The translations under genes were made by a program, and so were the position numbers. From Candidatus Methylomirabilota bacterium (GTDB lineage Bacteria; Patescibacteriota; Doudnabacteria; UBA920; O2-02-FULL-48-8): a DNA stretch of 26,621 bases. Positions 15,879 to 20,978 of the stretch are shown one piece after another. The DNA is taken from positions 1-26,621 of the forward strand of contig DATJFX010000008.1 of NCBI GenBank assembly GCA_035495465.1. Direction: 5' to 3'. The first letter of the stretch is position 1, and every line of letters begins with the position of its first letter. The notes under the pieces are model-generated. The model was not told the DNA's origin and searched no databases. It saw nothing but the letters and a program-made list of their open reading frames with translations.

Positions 15879-16346
15879 ATGGCAAATCGGCATTTGTCCA
15901 GAACAGTTGCGATGCAATCCCTCTATGAGTGGGACTTTAATGATCGCCATGGCGCCTTGCTGACAGTGGCCGAACGCAATGTCAAACAGTTTGCGCCGGG
16001 ATTGGAAGACACGGGATTTATCTTTGATTTGATTAAAGGCGTAAATAAAAACCTCCCGGAAATCGATAAAGTCATAGTCCAAACCGCCCCGGAATGGCCA
16101 TTGGATCAGATCACTGTGATTGATCGCAATATTTTGCGCCTGGGCATTTATGAACTGCTATTTGCGAAAAAAGTTCCGCCGAAAGTCGCGATCAATGAGG
16201 CGGTGGAACTCGGCAAAGCTTTTGGCGGCGAATCCAGCGGAAAATTTGTAAATGGTGTACTCGGCACTTTATATAAACAACTACCCGAGGAAGAACGTTT
16301 AGCTGGAGAGACCCCACAAGCTGAAAAAACTTCTAAGCAAGAATAA
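15879..16346 (+). CDS. nusB: Transcription antitermination factor NusB
   Basis: [43 protein letters not shown]...FVNGVLG. Confidence 0.96.
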
Positions 16347-16361
16347 ATTTTAATAACCTAC

Positions 16362-16637
16362 ATGAATAAACAAGAACTAATTGACGCACTGAGCTTAAAG
16401 CTCAATCTGGGTAAAACTGAAGCCGAAAACACACTCCATGGCTTTGTGGAAGTAATCACTGAAACCTTAAAAGCCGGTCAGGAAGTAAACATCTCTGGAT
16501 TCGGTTCTTTCGTAGTCACTCCCCGTTCCGCTAGGATGGGCGTAAATCCCCAAAACCCTACGGAAAAAATCCAAATCCCAGCCACCAAAGTTCCGAAATT
16601 CCGCGCCGGTAAAAACCTAAAAGAAGCAGTTAGATAA
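16362..16637 (+). CDS. hup: DNA-binding protein HU
   Basis: MNKQELI...GFGSF...R.GVNPQ...IPATKVPKFRAGKNLKEAV. Confidence 0.95.
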   Translation: MNKQELIDALSLKLNLGKTEAENTLHGFVEVITETLKAGQEVNISGFGSFVVTPRSARMGVNPQNPTEKIQIPATKVPKFRAGKNLKEAVR

Positions 16638-16644
16638 TCTTATT

Positions 16645-16676
16645 TGCCACTTTTCTTTCTAGAAAGAAAAGTGGCA
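16645..16676. repeat. 32-bp perfect palindrome downstream of hup
   Basis: TGCCACTTTTCTTTCT|AGAAAGAAAAGTGGCA. Confidence 0.9.
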
Positions 16677-16689
16677 GGAAAAGAAAGTC

Positions 16690-16777
16690 GGAAATTTGCC
16701 GGACTCGGAACGTGTTACGCTTGTCGACAAGGACCAATCTAACCGGATTTTAGTCGCTCGGACAGCGGCAAATTTCC
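16690..16777. other. Element D: stem-enclosed structured intergenic segment (candidate ncRNA)
   Basis: 12-bp perfect stem GGAAATTTGCCG/CGGCAAATTTCC enclosing 64 nt that contain small hairpins, followed by a terminator. Confidence 0.45.
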
Positions 16778-16784
16778 ATAATTT

Positions 16785-16807
16785 AAAACCCCTATTATAG
16801 GGGTTTT
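16785..16807. terminator. Bidirectional intrinsic terminator
   Basis: AAAACCCCTAT-T-ATAGGGGTTTT, between the convergent hup block and the small-gene island. Confidence 0.75.
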
Positions 16808-16820
16808 ATTTCTTATATTT

Positions 16821-16925
16821 AGGCGAAGGCAGTTGCTTGGAGGAGATTTGCGAGGCCCTTCCAATGGCCGAGCACATAGTCCGCCCGAAGCGGACGTCTC
16901 CGAGAAGCAGCTGCCTTCGCCTTTT
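16821..16925 (+). ncRNA. Structured element A1 (candidate novel ~102-nt ncRNA, copy 1)
   Basis: Homologous to 20168-20271 with at least 7 compensatory base-pair changes. Has a U.G pair and tandem G.A pairs on the + strand and a 3' U tract. Confidence 0.7.
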
Positions 16926-17016
16926 CTCTCAACTGTCGGCGAACAGGAGATTCAATCATTTTTTTCAAAATTATTGAATTCGCCGACAGATGAGAGAGCG
17001 GGAATGACAGTTGCTG

Positions 17017-17268
17017 TCACTCCCGCTTATGAAACGCCGCGACGTTATTTACGTTTTGGCGTTCTTGGGCAGGGGCCTGATGGGCCCTTTCTTCTGCCCG
17101 TAACCGGCGCTGATGCCGGCGAATTTGGCGCCGATAGCTCAACACAATTGGCACACCCATCGCCAGCCCAAAGAGAACAGTGGCACTCGCCTCCAATGTC
17201 TTCTGAGGGCTCATATAGAACCCCAAGCACCAGAGGAGGGCGACAACCAAGGTCAGCCATGATTTCAT
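17017..17268 (-). CDS. Small two-TM membrane protein with basic C-terminal tail (83 aa)
   Basis: MKSWLTLVVALLWCLGF... with SD GGGAG and ATGA coupling to the upstream gene. The longer ORF-track start (17460) was rejected. Confidence 0.75.
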   Translation of the reverse strand: MKSWLTLVVALLWCLGFYMSPQKTLEASATVLFGLAMGVPIVLSYRRQIRRHQRRLRAEERAHQAPAQERQNVNNVAAFHKRE

Positions 17269-17471
17269 GCCACTCCCCTGTGGATGGCTGTGAACACCGC
17301 CCAGATGACGCCTCCGCCGAAAATCATGGCGGTGACGCAAACCTGCCAGATGAGTTCGTCCAGGTTTTCGGACAGCCACTTGGCGGCCGGCCCGTCCTTG
17401 AGACGGATCACGACCGCGAACTTGCTTGACTCGATCTTTTTTTCCACCACGGGCGTCCAAACTACGGTCAT
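17265..17471 (-). CDS. Small hypothetical protein with C-terminal TM helix (68 aa)
   Basis: SD GAGGTG 5 nt before the ATG; hydrophobic C-terminus. Confidence 0.75.
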   Translation of the reverse strand: MTVVWTPVVEKKIESSKFAVVIRLKDGPAAKWLSENLDELIWQVCVTAMIFGGGVIWAVFTAIHRGVA

Positions 17472-17541
17472 AATATCACCTCATTCACCCTCGCCTTTCG
17501 GCTGGGCGATACACGAGTTGACGACGACTATATCCGACTTG

Positions 17542-17631
17542 CCCGTCTCTTAACTCGAACCCTAACATTATGTAAACATTTGTTCAAGCTAACAGACGGG
17601 AGGAGGACAACTTCTTGCAAGTCATCCTCCC
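17542..17631 (-). other. Element C: two abutting hairpins between gene modules, carrying the shared leader motif
   Basis: GGGAGGATGAC/GTCCTCCTCCC, then CCCGTCT..TTAGCTTGAAC/GTTCGAGTTAA..AGACGGG. The G.U pairs favour the minus strand. Confidence 0.55.
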
Positions 17632-17638
17632 TATCTTT

Positions 17639-17887
17639 TCATTGTGCTCCTCCTTGTGAAGCATGCTCTGGTTTCTTGCCCGTGATCCGCAACGTGGGAC
17701 CTTTCGGTCCGATCATCATCACGCGCGCTTCTCCGCGCCGCAGAAACTGGATCGCGAGCGTGTCGGGATAGGGATATCCCAGATCTTCGACGATCCGATC
17801 CCGGATCTGCTCCTTCGACTCCGAACCGTTGATGATGGCCAGGACCCGATCTTGCACGATTGCGACGGAGAGATCTCTGTACTTCAT
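17639..17887 (-). CDS. Small hypothetical protein (82 aa)
   Basis: ATG overlaps the upstream stop, with GGAGG upstream and protein-like composition. Confidence 0.75.
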   Translation of the reverse strand: MKYRDLSVAIVQDRVLAIINGSESKEQIRDRIVEDLGYPYPDTLAIQFLRRGEARVMMIGPKGPTLRITGKKPEHASQGGAQ

Positions 17888-18075
17888 TTTTCCTCCAGGA
17901 TGGCGAGTTCCTGACGAAACTCCTCACACACATAGATTAGAATCCCGAGTTCGTCCGCCTGCTGTTCCACCGTGAGCAGATCGGAATGACCCAACTTCTC
18001 GATGGCCAGCTGCAACGCCGCGATCTTCCTCTTGAGCAATGCTTTCCTGTATTCTCGCCTTTTTCTTCCAAACAT
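17884..18075 (-). CDS. Small helical/coiled-coil hypothetical protein (63 aa)
   Basis: SD GGAGGTG 4 nt before the ATG; heptad-like Leu/Ile pattern. Confidence 0.75.
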   Translation of the reverse strand: MFGRKRREYRKALLKRKIAALQLAIEKLGHSDLLTVEQQADELGILIYVCEEFRQELAILEEK

Positions 18076-18110
18076 TCTTCACCTCCGCCTTTCGGCTGAA
18101 AAAAAGAACT

Positions 18111-18401
18111 TCACTTGGCGCAGTCAGGAATTGAGCCGCCGTCTTCGTAACGGCGTTCAATCTCACTGGCACAGATCCCAAATGGAATCAGAATTTCTTG
18201 GACCTTATCCAGATCCAGGAAACCTGAAGCCTTGGCTTGCTCGCGCAGAGCCTGAGTGGCATGGTCAGCGCGATCTGAATTGCGCTGTCTCGCCTGGCTA
18301 AACACGCGATCCCGCGATCCGCTACGCTGGACCAGCAGGATTAATATCATCAAGGTCCCCAATCCGAGGACCGCCAGGATCTTTCTTCTATTTTCACTCA
18401 T
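18111..18401 (-). CDS. Small bitopic membrane protein (96 aa)
   Basis: RRK followed by hydrophobic ILAVLGLGTLMILILLV; SD GGAGG. Confidence 0.75.
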   Translation of the reverse strand: MSENRRKILAVLGLGTLMILILLVQRSGSRDRVFSQARQRNSDRADHATQALREQAKASGFLDLDKVQEILIPFGICASEIERRYEDGGSIPDCAK

Positions 18402-18420
18402 CGATCCTCCGATCGAGTTT

Positions 18421-18529
18421 AAGGGAACATTCCCTTCCTAAATATTCTATCCTTAGAAAACTTAGGAAGGGAGGGAGTTTTAAGGGTTTACCAATCAAGG
18501 TGTCCAATAAAACTCTCCATCTTCTACTT
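18421..18529 (+). repeat. Structured repeat B1 (core 18465-18529)
   Basis: 65-nt core matches 19367-19431 at 64/65 positions; the 5' stem is conserved in structure. Confidence 0.9.
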
Positions 18530-18536
18530 ACTCCTC

Positions 18537-18803
18537 CTACTTCTTCCAATCCTTGCACCCACCCGGCACGACCGCCATAGAGGTTCCCTGATAGATCATG
18601 CTGGTGTAGATCAGGTTCCCCGAAAGCATGTCACAGGTGGCGACAATCGACCCAGTGCCCATGGTCGGAACCTCGTATCTATAGACCTTGGGCGCCGACT
18701 GCTCGACATACGCTTGTGTGTCGGTCGGCGCAGTACTGCAGGCCGACGTTAATCCAAGACATATTGCGATGCCACTAACCTTTTTCCAATTCCAACGGAA
18801 CAT
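18537..18803 (-). CDS. Small predicted lipoprotein (88 aa)
   Basis: Basic N-terminus, hydrophobic stretch, lipobox-like LTSA|C; SD GGAGGTG. Confidence 0.7.
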   Translation of the reverse strand: MFRWNWKKVSGIAICLGLTSACSTAPTDTQAYVEQSAPKVYRYEVPTMGTGSIVATCDMLSGNLIYTSMIYQGTSMAVVPGGCKDWKK

Positions 18804-18843
18804 CTCTCACCTCCGCGCTTCCGCGCTGGAAAAAGCAGAAAAT

Positions 18844-19029
18844 CTACTGAAAGAACCGCATGAACCAGCTGGAGATCGCTCCCCATTTGGCCCACACAAT
18901 CGCCGAGACGAACCCCAGCATTCCGAGGTTCATCATCACGCCCACAGCAAGGACGAATGACTGAGTGTCCTCACGCAGATACTTCTGCAACGGGCTCAAT
19001 CCCGTTTCGTTCGGATCAGGGATGTGCAT
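18844..19029 (-). CDS. Small single-TM protein (~61 aa)
   Basis: SD AAGGAG; hydrophobic FVLAVGVMMNLGMLGFVSAIVW. The start could be 19029 or 19032. Confidence 0.75.
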   Translation of the reverse strand: MHIPDPNETGLSPLQKYLREDTQSFVLAVGVMMNLGMLGFVSAIVWAKWGAISSWFMRFFQ

Positions 19030-19065
19030 CATCAACTCCTTGCGCCTAGGCGCTGGAAAAGGAAA

Positions 19066-19299
19066 TTAGTGCCTGCCGCGGCCACCGGGCCAGAGTGGCC
19101 CGAGCATCCGTCGGAAGGCATAGATGACGATCCCCAGCAACAACGCCGGGCCGATGATCGACGAGACAAAGTTCTCGATCTTACTGAGAACCATGTAACG
19201 GAAATCCTCGGACAGAACCATCATCGCCACGAGGACGATGAGGACCGTGCGTAGTGCCCGCTGCGGCGAACCGAAGAAAAACTCAATCCAAGCCTGCAT
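19066..19299 (-). CDS. Small two-TM membrane protein (77 aa)
   Basis: SD AAGGAGG 4 nt before the ATG; two hydrophobic helices, each flanked by Arg. Confidence 0.8.
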   Translation of the reverse strand: MQAWIEFFFGSPQRALRTVLIVLVAMMVLSEDFRYMVLSKIENFVSSIIGPALLLGIVIYAFRRMLGPLWPGGRGRH

Positions 19300-19319
19300 G
19301 AGGCCTCCTTAGGTATATC

Positions 19320-19431
19320 AGGGAAACCATTTCCCTTCCGATAAGATCTAAATTTTAAATCTCATTGGAAGGGAGGGAGTTTTAAGGATTTACCAATCAA
19401 GGTGTCCAATAAAACTCTCCATCTTCTACTT
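19320..19431 (+). repeat. Structured repeat B2 (core 19367-19431)
   Basis: Second copy of B1, in the same position immediately after a module's last stop codon. Confidence 0.9.
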
Positions 19432-19625
19432 TACTTCCTCCTGGTAATCTCTCTTGCTCTTGGCGGTGGCACCACGAACTCCACTTCGAGACCGAGTCCA
19501 GTGGCGTGGCTGACAATCAGCTTGCCGATCGCCTCATCGGATGTACGACCAGCCTCCCACTTGCCCTTTTGATTTGCCAAGCAGGCATGCCAGTCATCTG
19601 AGCGCTTGGTCACAACGATTTTCAT
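19431..19625 (-). CDS. Small protein with possible HicB/UPF0150-like fold (64 aa)
   Basis: SD GGAGGTG. WHACLANQKGKWEAGRTSDEAIGKL resembles the HicB pattern y.a....G....G.T.eEA..nl. Confidence 0.5.
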   Translation of the reverse strand: MKIVVTKRSDDWHACLANQKGKWEAGRTSDEAIGKLIVSHATGLGLEVEFVVPPPRAREITRRK

Positions 19626-19653
19626 CTTACACCTCCGCCAAGTGTTGGAACTC

Positions 19654-19791
19654 TTACTTCTGGAAAATGCTTCGGCACTCGTAGAATGCCTTCCAGCATT
19701 CCTTGCCGATCCAGGCGGACACCGGGTTCCGTGGGCGAAAAATCATCAACCACACCATAACCCCGATAAACACGATCTGGAAATAAGCCAT
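19654..19791 (-). CDS. 45-aa hydrophobic peptide (below the ORF-track cutoff)
   Basis: Manual translation MAYFQIVFIGVMVWLMIFRPRNPVSAWIGKECWKAFYECRSIFQK*. SD GAGGTG; fills the gap between its neighbours. Confidence 0.75.
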   Translation of the reverse strand: MAYFQIVFIGVMVWLMIFRPRNPVSAWIGKECWKAFYECRSIFQK

Positions 19792-19828
19792 CTTTCACCT
19801 CTTGCCCATTGGGCTGAAAACGAACTTG

Positions 19829-20023
19829 TTACTTCGCCAACTTGTCGAGAGTCCGGGAGTCGATCTCGATGGGCTGAATCCAGATCTCACGTCTGACCCC
19901 GGCCGCTTTGTGAAGCTGCTGGGTAGTCGGCAGAAGCGCCTCGGCGACGTCTTGATGCAGGTACACGGTCGAGCTCGCCAACTCTTGAAGATTGTTGGCA
20001 TAAACCATAACGTAACCTTTCAT
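19829..20023 (-). CDS. Small hypothetical protein (64 aa), first gene of the island
   Basis: SD AAGGAG before the ATG at 20023 (MKGYVMVY...). Confidence 0.7.
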   Translation of the reverse strand: MKGYVMVYANNLQELASSTVYLHQDVAEALLPTTQQLHKAAGVRREIWIQPIEIDSRTLDKLAK

Positions 20024-20167
20024 GACTATCTCCTTGAAAACTGTGGGAAGCAACTTGCTTCCACAACCCTGAACACTTAGGTAAACTTTAGAGCAACAAT
20101 ATTTCTCTGTGTTACAACATTAAGTATTCAGAATAGTAGAAACAATTTTTCACTTTCTCTTCTCTTT

Positions 20168-20271
20168 AGGTGAGGCCTGCTGCTTCGAAGAGAATTGCGA
20201 GGACCTTCCAATGTCCGAGCTCTTAGTCGCCCTCAGGCGACGTCTCTGAGAAGCAGCAGGCCGAACCTTTT
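20168..20271 (+). ncRNA. Structured element A2 (candidate novel ncRNA, copy 2)
   Basis: Covarying homolog of A1, with three tandem G.A motifs on the + strand and a 3' U tract. Confidence 0.7.
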
Positions 20272-20472
20272 CCTTCCACAATTCTGGAAGCTTATCCAAC
20301 TGCTGGGGCGCAATTATATAATTTCGCCGCTTAGTCGGACAACCCTCCCAGAACTCTGGAAACAAAATAGCTCCCTTTCAGGAGCTATAGGTAAAATGTA
20401 TGTGAAATTTGCTACGTGCCCATTCGGTCCTGAACGAATAGGTACGACTATTCATTTTTTAAACAACTCATA

Positions 20473-20501
20473 AGTATACTCCTAAAAACCGATCTTGTCA
20501 A
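20473..20501 (-). promoter_or_regulatory. Sigma70-type promoter P1 driving the small-gene island
   Basis: TTGACA-N17-TATACT. Confidence 0.85.
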
Positions 20502-20511
20502 TAGATAACCC

Positions 20512-20540
20512 AAAAAAGAGGCTTAGGTTAGCCTCTTTTT
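20512..20540 (-). terminator. Intrinsic terminator of groES-groEL-GxxExxY
   Basis: AAAAAGAGGCT-AACCTA-AGCCTCTTTTTT. Confidence 0.85.
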
Positions 20541-20580
20541 GCCGCTAATATACACGAATACTGAACGAATTTACACTAAT
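20541..20580. repeat. Left imperfect inverted repeat of the GxxExxY element
   Basis: GCCGC-TAAT-nn-ACAC-GAAT-ACTGAA-CGAAT-nn-ACAC-TAAT, matching the reverse complement of 20983-21028. Confidence 0.75.
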
Positions 20581-20978
20581 TTGAAAGGTTTTCGATTATT
20601 GGTAAAAATAACTCTTTTTACCATAAGTTGAGAAGAAGCAAAATTTATTAGATAAGCTAGCTCGTATTCACTATTTCGTAAATAATCATAAAGACGTTTC
20701 AGCTCCTCATTTGATACAAATTTTTCAGCCTTTAGCTCAACTATAATTTTATCGTCAACAATAAAGTCAGGCCGATAAAGCCCGACTTTTTGTCCATCTT
20801 TTGGAGAATAAATATTTACACTTGGCTCTTTTACGAACTGAATTTTACGACGCCCGAATTCTTGAACCAACGCAGTTTGATATAATTTTTCTTTATGCCC
20901 CGGACCGAAATCTTTCCGCACTTCAATAGCCGCCCCATGAATCAAATACGATAATTCCTTATGTAATAATTCAGCCAT
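20571..20978 (-). CDS. GxxExxY protein (PD-(D/E)XK-like putative nuclease)
   Basis: FGPGHKEKLY (GxxExxY), RPDFIVDDKIIVELKA, YL...LINF. Confidence 0.93.
   Translation of the reverse strand: MAELLHKELSYLIHGAAIEVRKDFGPGHKEKLYQTALVQEFGRRKIQFVKEPSVNIYSPKDGQKVGLYRPDFIVDDKIIVELKAEKFVSNEELKRLYDYLRNSEYELAYLINFASSQLMVKRVIFTNNRKPFKLV

Follow-up and report, generated by a model that had tools for sequence, protein, structure and literature searches.

The near-identical 65-nt repeat in the window, by which we mean the whole 26,621-nt stretch of DNA analysed here, is the variable half of a two-hairpin RNA element (element B) that separates groups of tiny genes. Element B is an RNA motif supported by covariation and restricted to a single order-level clade, and it matches no catalogued RNA family in Rfam 15: at gathering thresholds the only matches in the window were two tRNAs, with none at B, and a scan of positions 16700-20600 at a permissive E-value gave sub-threshold miRNA-hairpin noise, the best of it scoring 23 bits against a cut-off of 55.5 bits. 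With a covariation-supported structure held at a fixed position and orientation relative to genes, the element has the marks of a generic structured cis-regulatory RNA.

Architecture of the element in the window

A repeat search of the window placed the two copies of the 65-nt core at 18465-18529 and 19367-19431, spaced 902 bp apart and identical at 64 of 65 positions (98%), and whole-genome BLAST returned just these two copies, B1 and B2, from the window's genome (G000; 562 kb, 82% complete). The repeat had been picked out in a sequence-only reading of the window, and it held up genome-wide. Independent unitigs from soil metagenome runs end at the repeat cores, matching the expectation for a true repeat, and the exact core had no match in metagenome contigs. 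If two 1-nt indels are allowed, the similarity of B1 and B2 continues for about 12 nt upstream in the mRNA sense (AGGAGGA-GTAA-GTAGAAG), which in B2 form the last four codons of gene 19431-19625; beyond these ~12 nt we found no long duplication running into flanking coding sequence, the outcome that the sequence-only reading had named as counting against it.

The minus strand carries all genes of the array and the cores fall in the intercistronic spacers 18402-18536 and 19300-19430, so that each element B sits between one gene's stop codon and the SD of the next gene. A structured element at module junctions, as originally proposed, is supported; its cores, however, had been assigned to the end of the last gene of each three-gene module, where they really lie in stop-to-SD spacers between minus-strand genes, and the three-gene modules themselves emerge only once two ORFs are re-framed, to 19829-20023 and 19654-19791.

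Read in the mRNA sense, the conserved unit runs from a variable hairpin 2 through a CYCCCUUCC pyrimidine (Y) tract, hairpin 1 and a purine (R) tract, GGAAGGGAA, often to a hairpin 3, and on to the SD and ATG. Hairpin 2 is stable and free in sequence, lies immediately 3' of the upstream stop codon, and is present and abuts the Y-tract in ~40 of 43 copies. Hairpin 1 is AU-rich and 18-35 bp long, its outer stem being formed by the Y-tract paired with the R-tract, while hairpin 3, which is found as such or as a variant 3' of the R-tract in ~26 of 43 copies, is a short alternative (GGGAA-n-UUCCC) that competes for the same G's as the hairpin 1 outer stem. The SD and start of the next gene come 10-40 nt after these parts.

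Element B1 (18402..18536, minus strand) fills the spacer between 18537-18803 and 18111-18401, minus-strand genes that, in the ORF layout, encode an 88-aa lipoprotein-like protein and a protein of 96 aa; its sense fold has an energy of -49.5 kcal/mol (z -4.4) and it matches covariance model R2 at 56.4 bits. Hairpin 2 (18473..18518) makes up the bulk of the identical core and is variable between genomes, and the 65-nt identity block ends at the pyrimidine tract CUCCCUUCC (18465..18473), which serves both as the hairpin 2 junction and as the 5' strand of the hairpin-1 outer stem. Hairpin 1 (CCCUUCC-UAAGUUUUCUA...UAGAAUAUUUA-GGAAGGG, 18432..18471) is conserved across the family and order, as judged from BLAST matches (in G021 and G007), matches to models R1 and R2, and covariation. 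It is followed on the minus strand by the purine tract GGAAGGGAA (18430-18438), the alternative hairpin 3 GGGAAUGUUCCC (18423-18434) and an SD mini-hairpin, CGAUC-GGAG-GAUCG, seen in the sequence at 18402..18415, which abuts the ATG at 18401.

Element B2 (19300..19430, minus strand) is built in the same order between the minus-strand genes 19431-19625 (64 aa) and 19066-19299 (77 aa, FFxGTPQR two-TM family), with a sense fold of -49.0 kcal/mol (z -6.05) and an R2 match of 59 bits. Its hairpin 2 (19375..19420), which is the 64/65 identical core, and its pyrimidine tract CUCCCUUCC (19367..19375) lead into a hairpin 1 (19333..19373) whose outer stem is as in B1 and whose inner stem differs, AUGAGAUUUAA/UUAGAUCUUAU, with G.U pairs on the sense strand. 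Next on the minus strand come the purine tract GGAAGGGAA (19331-19339) and, as the alternative, hairpin 3, GGGAAAUGGUUUCCC (19321-19335), but the MFE fold has GGUUUCC bound to GGAGGCC of the SD region and not in hairpin 3; the SD of gene 19066-19299 itself (AGGAGG) lies at 19304..19309, also on the minus strand.

The folds beat shuffles on both strands (z -4.1 to -6.1), and the pairings of the sequence-only reading are present: GGAGUUUUA with UAAAACUCU, UUCCCUUCC with GGAAGGGA (closing over inner hairpins that differ between the copies), GGGAA as a competing partner, and the SD hairpin of B1. Its mutually exclusive pairing (GGAAGGG/CCCUUCC or GGGAA/UUCCC) recurs in other genomes, in ~26 of 43 scorable copies. 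The region that it had described as differing between the two copies belongs to the conserved hairpin 1. Hairpin 2 of B1 also holds a minus-strand mini-ORF, MESFIGHLDW (18488-18520), which recurs in B2 (19390-19422); we rejected it as a leader peptide, as it is absent from hairpin 2 of most other genomes, with a similar 7-codon mini-ORF only in G010, and its SD spacing is 12-14 nt.

Conservation and covariation among relatives

Covariance models detected 1-6 same-strand copies, in arrays of 2-6 where multiple, in 17 of the 24 genomes of the family, and copies in 12 of 121 genomes of sister families. Nearly all copies are in the GC-rich groESL-nusB interval. With hardly an exception they point the same way as the genes, and they sit downstream of a stop codon and ahead of a start with an SD. 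No copies were detectable in two family genomes that do have a GC-rich groEL-nusB interval, and 1 Mb of nusB loci from other Patescibacteria gave none except for one marginal match. A search with the hairpin 1 19-mer returned 12 loci, only one of which (L187) is a true array.

Counting copies genome-wide and in relatives was a check suggested in the sequence-only reading: the 65-nt core occurs twice in G000 and is conserved in no other genome, whereas the two-hairpin element recurs in 17 of the 24 family genomes. The core, on which that reading had placed its emphasis, is in fact the least conserved part of element B, and the 64/65 identity of the window copies reflects a recent within-genome duplication or gene conversion of the hairpin-2 module, not selection on sequence. 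The argument that near-identity among unrelated genes speaks for mobility of the repeat falls with this, since the identity goes back to such a within-genome event.

Conservation between genomes resides instead in hairpin 1. In alignment A3 (29 copies from 16 genomes), 86.9% of its cells are paired against 73.7% after shuffling, with 77 against 30 double-change cells, and none of 500 shuffles scored as high. In alignment A4 (33 copies, sister families included), 92.1% are paired against 71.6%, double-change cells number 118 against 36.9, and 17 of the 18 pairs have changed on both sides; slid controls for A4 gave 41-62% paired. Hairpin 1 also favours the mRNA strand, not the + strand, because G.U cells in the 33 copies number 81 on the window minus strand, which is the gene-sense one, and the A.C cells that the + strand would read as G.U number just 17. 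Pairing by strand is 92.1% in the gene sense and 81.2% on the + strand, and sense-strand folds were more stable in all four spacers tested. The + strand had been named as the structured one in the sequence-only reading, an assignment that the conserved hairpin reverses. Folded single-stranded DNA, with G.T in place of G.U, would account for these pairs equally well.

The putative small-gene operon and a proposed role

Both elements lie in an inferred polycistronic operon of ~10 small genes (16790..20501, minus strand; GC 0.50-0.58) between groESL/PDDEXK_3 and HU-nusB. Upstream of the array is its best sigma70-like promoter (20501-20473, 11 of 12 matches), and a bidirectional terminator lies near 16784-16808. 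Neither a sigma70 promoter (-35/-10 hexamers at 16-18 nt spacing) nor a Rho-independent terminator (GC-rich hairpin plus U-tract) was found at B on either strand, hairpin 2 being followed by CUCCCUUCC, and the strong promoter precedes the whole array, so that B would be internal to a transcript. Pfam gave nothing at E<0.03 for ten small ORFs, and a word-based homologue search with the 77-aa protein returned only itself, its family being found by an exhaustive profile search. A phage or plasmid origin of the island was rejected, as blastn against 50,697 phage and 72,556 plasmid records gave no match. A look-up of the identical HU gave only the same layout in another sample, and there was therefore no strain-level variation to compare.

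We infer that the array is transcribed as one mRNA, which is cleaved and translationally gated at B, and we tentatively favour, at a probability a little short of an even balance, the reading of B as an intercistronic mRNA element for processing or stability and for translational gating. Element B would be a cis-acting structured segment of the minus-strand polycistronic mRNA, and a 'punctuation' motif specific to the lineage of Doudnabacteria-like Patescibacteria. Hairpin 1, which is long, and hairpin 2, which abuts it, would together act as an intercistronic processing and stability signal, in which a cut by an endonuclease such as RNase III would leave hairpin-protected ends. In addition, the Y-tract is similar to the 3' tail of 16S rRNA (in one family member that tail is CACCUCCUUUCUAAGG, similar to the Y-tract with UAAG added) and the R-tract is similar to an SD. 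Y:R pairing, against which hairpin 3 and the real SD would compete, may gate translation of the downstream module.

RNase III is encoded in 17 of 17 high-quality family genomes and was not found in the 82%-complete G000, and the 18-35 bp of hairpin 1 compare with the ~20 bp or more of dsRNA needed for an RNase III signal, cleavage itself being a proposal. The closest likeness on this side is to the RNase III signals of phage T7 early mRNA (R0.3-R1.3), in which, as in B, several similar hairpins of 60-100 nt separate the cistrons of one transcript and the long stems, mostly A-U and G.U, span about two helical turns; the Doudnabacteria-like family encodes RNase III. An obligatory second hairpin sets B apart from the T7 signals, as do its conserved pyrimidine and purine tracts, for which RNase III has no need; B is also chromosomal, lineage-wide and non-phage, and is only predicted to be cleaved. 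SD-sequestering switches and thermometers (ROSE, fourU and anti-SD mimics) share with B alternative pairings and a pyrimidine tract like the 16S 3' tail that pairs with an SD-like purine tract, whereas the real downstream SD of B lies outside hairpin 1, and B is not known to respond to a ligand or to temperature.

A pure processing or stability role does not explain the conserved sequences of the Y and R tracts, the confinement of copies to one hypervariable locus, or the way in which hairpin 2 and hairpin 1 assort independently, breaking at the Y-tract. The solo copy in G007, behind which no gene follows, also speaks against the RNA reading, as do the two family genomes in which no copies were detectable. 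CsrA was rejected as a GGA-binding partner (no CsrA gene in G000), as were tRNA-like punctuation, a ribozyme and a sigma54 or sigma32 promoter, for which inspection revealed no consensus and Rfam gave no support.

Alternative explanations and significance

The sequence-only reading had posed the choice between a functional RNA and a recombination site, and both are still live. In the main rival explanation, which we regard as doubtful, B elements are cassette-junction recombination sites, whose Y-tract and hairpin are recognised by a recombinase as folded ssDNA or duplex, or which serve as plain homology patches; modules would enter, leave and change places within the groESL-nusB array in a manner functionally analogous to integron attC sites and CALINs. 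The interval is indeed hypervariable, with only 8 small families shared among ~200 small ORFs from 18 loci. Genomes of the same genus with flanks 74-77% identical have almost nothing in common inside it, and a close relative (L174) combines an unchanged promoter and leader with a different gene order. The arrays keep to one strand, with 1-3 genes in each unit. GC is 0.50-0.65 in cassette genes, compared with 0.38-0.41 in B and 0.40-0.48 in the flanks. Modules combine independently of one another, and in G000, G021 and G007 the blocks of identity have an end at the Y-tract.

Integron attC arrays and CALINs resemble the B arrays in their same-orientation, small, mostly orphan promoterless genes separated by imperfect palindromes, in a conserved outer stem around an interior of variable length, and in fast gene turnover, and a CALIN does not require an adjoining integron integrase (IntI, a tyrosine recombinase). 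In contrast, B arrays have no IntI and no R''/R' core sequences, are fixed between groESL and nusB, and carry 1-3 genes per unit. The window ORFs scanned and the surroundings of the arrays examined contained no integrase or other recombinase, and G000 (82% complete) has a single PF00589 gene, on another contig (C61), and no serine recombinase or Y1 transposase. The 33 aligned copies have a CYCCCUUCC/GGAAGGGAA closing stem and no RYYYAAC/GTTRRRY core sites, and the structural bias, 81 to 17 in G.U cells, favours the coding-sense strand; in integrons it is the bottom strand that is used. DNA contigs of four runs over the region contained no excision, circle or deletion joints, breaking only at the repeat cores, but this counts for little, since rare variants are lost from contigs. 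The fixed distance to the next SD and ATG and the conserved hairpin 3 are better explained at the RNA level.

It is tempting to combine the two readings, such that the Y-tract/double-hairpin elements are junctions of an undescribed Patescibacteria gene-cassette system, independent of an integrase or using an unknown recombinase, that rebuilds the GC-rich array downstream of groESL and gives each new module an mRNA expression or processing signal; we consider this combination improbable. The array in such a system would be one of tiny membrane and secreted protein genes.

Similarly improbable is a selfish or neutral origin, with B as a palindromic repeat of the REP/BIME, ERIC, BOX or MITE kind that has spread in transcribed spacers and is tolerated there, with modules reshuffled by gene conversion. 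Like B, the REP/BIME, ERIC, Correia (NEMIS) and pneumococcal BOX elements are modular palindromes of intercistronic spacers; they are transcribed, as B would be, and can alter mRNA stability or translation, and BOX and BIME are mosaics of exchangeable modules, as are hairpin 2 and hairpin 1. The near-perfect identity within a genome would also fit, as would a solo copy in G007, which lies outside the array with no downstream gene and adjoins rsmI beside a diverged duplicate of the gene's 3' end. Those elements, however, are dispersed in tens to hundreds of copies and mostly species-specific, whereas B has very few copies (2 in G000, 1-6 elsewhere), almost all in one syntenic locus, and a structure kept with compensatory changes across genera and families. 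Its orientation and spacing relative to genes are strict, no RAYT/Y1 transposase (PF01797) was found in the 82%-complete G000, and the copies inspected showed no terminal inverted repeats or target duplications.

Least credible of all is the version of the sequence-only reading, a + strand (antisense) small RNA or antisense terminator made from the core and regulating the minus-strand genes: the core hairpin of the window is indeed slightly more stable on the + strand (-15.1/-14.3 against -12.9/-13.7 kcal/mol), its single A/G difference is, as stated, G.U-neutral only there, and one G021 hairpin 2 is followed by a T-rich run on that strand, but hairpin 2 has no strand bias over 50 copies (means of -15.85 and -15.47 kcal/mol; 50 G.U pairs on each), so that the one A/G change is not evidence for such an RNA, and hairpin 1 favours the sense strand, the + strand has no promoter or terminator consensus at B, and no other genome conserves the core sequence.

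Patescibacteria (CPR) are mostly uncultured episymbionts with reduced genomes, and to our knowledge almost nothing has been established about their regulation. Element B marks a single locus, adjoining the chaperonin genes, in which genes for small membrane or secreted proteins turn over far faster than the flanking housekeeping genes. Under either reading, models R1 and R2 and alignment A4 provide a searchable handle for such arrays, and the Y:R stem and hairpin 3 offer concrete mutations to probe. If B controls processing or translation for each module, a minimal genome would have in it a compact and portable signal for expression; if, instead, B is a recombination junction, it would represent a new route to cassette diversity outside integrons.

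The repeats of element B and their setting in the window

Element B is present twice in the window, as B1 and B2, with 65-nt cores (18465-18529 and 19367-19431) that are identical at 64 of 65 positions and spaced 902 bp apart, confirming the near-identical structured repeat described in a sequence-only reading. BLAST of the entire 562-kb, 70-contig assembly detected no third copy of the core, giving a genome-wide count of two. Allowing two single-base indels, the similarity continues for ~12 nt beyond the core (AGGAGGA-GTAA-GTAGAAG), in B2 taking in the final four codons of the gene upstream; the duplication reaching far into coding sequence that the same reading had weighed against a functional element is not seen. 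Unitigs from soil-metagenome runs have their ends at the repeat cores, which is how a genuine repeat should behave, and none of them contains a joint skipping the 900 bp between B1 and B2.

Every plausible gene of the region is on the minus strand, and the repeats therefore lie within two long intercistronic spacers (B1, 18402-18536; B2, 19300-19430; both minus strand). An independent gene call on an identical contig from another sample yields the same small genes. Two of the ORFs listed for "module 1" are probably in the wrong frame. These longest ORFs, 19795-20001 and 19622-19798, which a public gene caller also predicts, are Arg/Ser/Pro-rich, and the SD-led alternatives 19829-20023 (64 aa) and 19654-19791 (45 aa, hydrophobic) better match the stereotyped hairpin-SD-ATG spacing. 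An identical 10-codon mini-ORF, MESFIGHLDW, is present in the core hairpin (hairpin 2) of both copies (18488-18520 and 19390-19422, minus strand), with AGGAGG 12-14 nt upstream, and is probably a coincidence; the copy in a relative, G010, has a similar AGGAGGAG and a short ORF upstream.

The genome is small and CPR-sized; judged by nusB, its closest relatives are MAGs that carry the label Candidatus Doudnabacteria or Patescibacteria. The repeat-bearing stretch (~3.6 kb, GC 0.52-0.55 versus ~0.40 in its surroundings) has groES-groEL with a PD-(D/E)XK gene at one end and HU-nusB at the opposite end, and holds ~10 genes of 45-96 codons, none with a Pfam match. A strong sigma70-like promoter (20501-20473, 11/12 matches) is found upstream of the array and a terminator (16784-16808) at its far end, with neither promoter-like nor terminator-like sites at B on either strand; we therefore infer a single polycistronic minus-strand transcript to which B1 and B2 are internal. 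HU-nusB (15879-16637) is inverted relative to groEL and the array in the window, whereas groEL, array, nusB and HU are co-directed in other family genomes. A repeated unit, TTCTGGGAGGG...GGGAAATTATA(T/C)AATTTGCCC, occurs at 20300-20360 (minus strand) with a promoter-like TTGTCC-18-TATAAT (20342-20313), and three times in the close relative L174 (661-740, 790-850, 1335-1400), once directly after a B-like element; it is possibly an internal promoter cassette.

Architecture, distribution and hypervariable neighbourhood

In the mRNA sense, every copy follows the order stop codon, hairpin 2 (free sequence), pyrimidine tract CYCCCUUCC (Y-tract), hairpin 1 (AU-rich, variable in length) and GGAAGGGAA, after which GGGAA-n-UUCCC (hairpin 3) often follows, then 10-40 nt, an SD and a start. 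When B1 was compared by BLAST with 40 relatives, the 65-nt core was unmatched and the adjoining hairpin, 18430-18475, was matched twice in G021, at sites separated by 691 bp, and also in G007. The stem of the matched hairpin shows a compensatory change, and other hairpins take the place of the core. A covariance model of five copies (R1) found matches in 15 of 24 family genomes, and its rebuilt version of 29 copies (R2) in 17 of 24, typically as same-strand arrays of 2-6 copies at spacings of 300-1500 bp, as well as in 12 of 121 genomes of sister families. In a specificity control covering the nusB loci of 78 other Patescibacteria (1 Mb), R2 gave one marginal match (L165, 24.1 bits), and the only strong matches were two family-member loci also within the 80-locus set. 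A weak R2 match (23.8 bits) at 16621-16687 (minus strand), a polypyrimidine/polypurine hairpin over the HU stop and terminator region, may represent a degenerate B-like element where the array ends.

A 19-mer pattern search of metagenome contigs, combined with R2, added one further four-copy array (L187 9831-12119). Two hairpin-1 types alternate there, CCCUUCC.../GGAAGGG and CUUCGCUCC.../GGAGUGAAG, both with the inner tip AAUCCGCCAGCUGGCGGAU, which is found in G010 too. A solo B-like copy in G007 (L009 4985-5260, contig C13) has no downstream gene; rsmI flanks it on one side, and on the other is a remnant ~75% identical to the 3' end of rsmI. This arrangement resembles the footprint left by an insertion or a replacement.

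In nearly all family genomes, B copies occupy the interval from groES-groEL through the array to nusB-HU (window 16638-20570; L008, L066, L068-L073, L076, L077), where GC is 0.50-0.65 throughout and 0.40-0.48 in the flanks; the interval is still GC-rich in two family genomes without detectable B. The small SD-led ORFs of 18 loci, some 200 in all, share only eight small families (blastp E<1e-4), and same-genus genomes with groEL and nusB 74-77% identical in DNA have almost nothing in common in between. L174, a metagenome contig from a close relative, keeps the promoter and the leader; its first gene is homologous to the window's 77-aa gene (19066-19299, minus strand), and behind it come B-like elements and genes that differ from those of the window. 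The 77-aa protein, an apparent orphan in a word-based search, is a member of a family whose ~49 representatives combine an N-terminal FFxGTPQR motif with two TM helices and a tail that is basic and GG-rich; weak similarity to T4SS pilin/TrbC is seen in a few (best E 3.9e-4).

Covariation and strand preference of hairpin 1

Two alignments were used to test hairpin 1 over its proximal stem of 18 bp. In A3 (29 copies, 16 genomes), 86.9% of cells were paired versus a shuffled mean of 73.7%, and in A4 (33 copies, sister families included), 92.1% versus 71.6%, with 0/500 shuffles as high in either; double-change cells numbered 77 versus 30 and 118 versus 36.9, respectively. Both sides changed in 17 of the 18 pairs in A4, and slid registers were 41-62% paired. 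The outer stem, formed by the Y-tract and a purine tract (R-tract), also covaries (for example, UUCC/GGAA to UCUC/GAGA, UGCC/GGCA, CGCUCC/GGAGUG and CCCUCC/GGAGGG), despite a strong preference for its commonest form.

Hairpin 1 is 92.1% paired on the gene-sense strand, with 81 G.U cells, versus 81.2% on the opposite strand, where 17 A.C cells would read G.U. Although it was the sense strand on which the models were built, each match's strand also agrees with gene orientation. Hairpin 2 abuts the Y-tract in ~40 of 43 copies and has no strand bias (mean -15.85 versus -15.47 kcal/mol; 50 versus 50 G.U pairs). In the window its plus-strand form is marginally better, and the earlier argument for the plus strand thus traces to one substitution in the non-conserved module, while the conserved module favours the mRNA strand.

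A possible RNA-level role for element B

We tentatively favour a role for element B at the RNA level, given its fixed orientation and fixed spacing to the next start, the wobble pairs on the sense strand, a conserved alternative pairing, the lack of promoter or terminator at B, the presence of RNase III in the family, and the similarity between the 16S 3' tail and the Y-tract followed by UAAG. Hairpin 3 and the Y-tract are predicted to compete for GGG of the R-tract, and in the predicted B2 fold the UUUCC strand can sequester the SD instead. The 16S tail CACCUCCUUUCUAAGG (L175 2940-2965, the G021 16S 3' end) resembles the Y-tract and hairpin-1 start (CCUCUUCCUAAG / CUCCCUUCCUAAG), so the Y:R stem may be an SD/anti-SD mimic; the R-tract could form ~8-10 bp with this tail.

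The main rival, a cassette-junction recombination site, would suit the array form, the hypervariable interval, the differing GC of cassettes and junctions, and the assortment of modules. Near-identity blocks within genomes begin or end at the Y-tract, comprising hairpin 2 and Y-tract in the window's genome, Y-tract, hairpin 1 and 5' UTR in G021 (62 nt at 100%), and Y-tract and hairpin 1 in G007 (65/71). These boundaries show that copies recombined or underwent gene conversion, and the three informative pairs are compatible with site-specific or homologous exchange. We nevertheless consider such a site unlikely, as a recombinase is absent at every array examined, attC core sites are absent, the strand bias argues otherwise, and the window's genome has a single tyrosine recombinase, located elsewhere, with no serine recombinase or Y1 transposase found. 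A selfish REP/BOX-like repeat is more doubtful still, given the low copy number, confinement to a single locus and deep covariation, and an antisense sRNA, opposed by the strand evidence, is highly improbable.

Element B matches no family in Rfam 15, and we found nothing on it in the literature on CPR gene cassettes or RNA motifs. We regard it as an intercistronic structured element of a kind already known, with a minority chance of something more unusual; what is new is the motif definition, the covariation and strand statistics, the family and order distribution, and the locus synteny. If element B does act at the RNA level, it would serve as an intercistronic processing and stability signal that leaves ends protected by hairpins, and its Y-tract, R-tract and hairpin 3 would form a switch gating the downstream SD.
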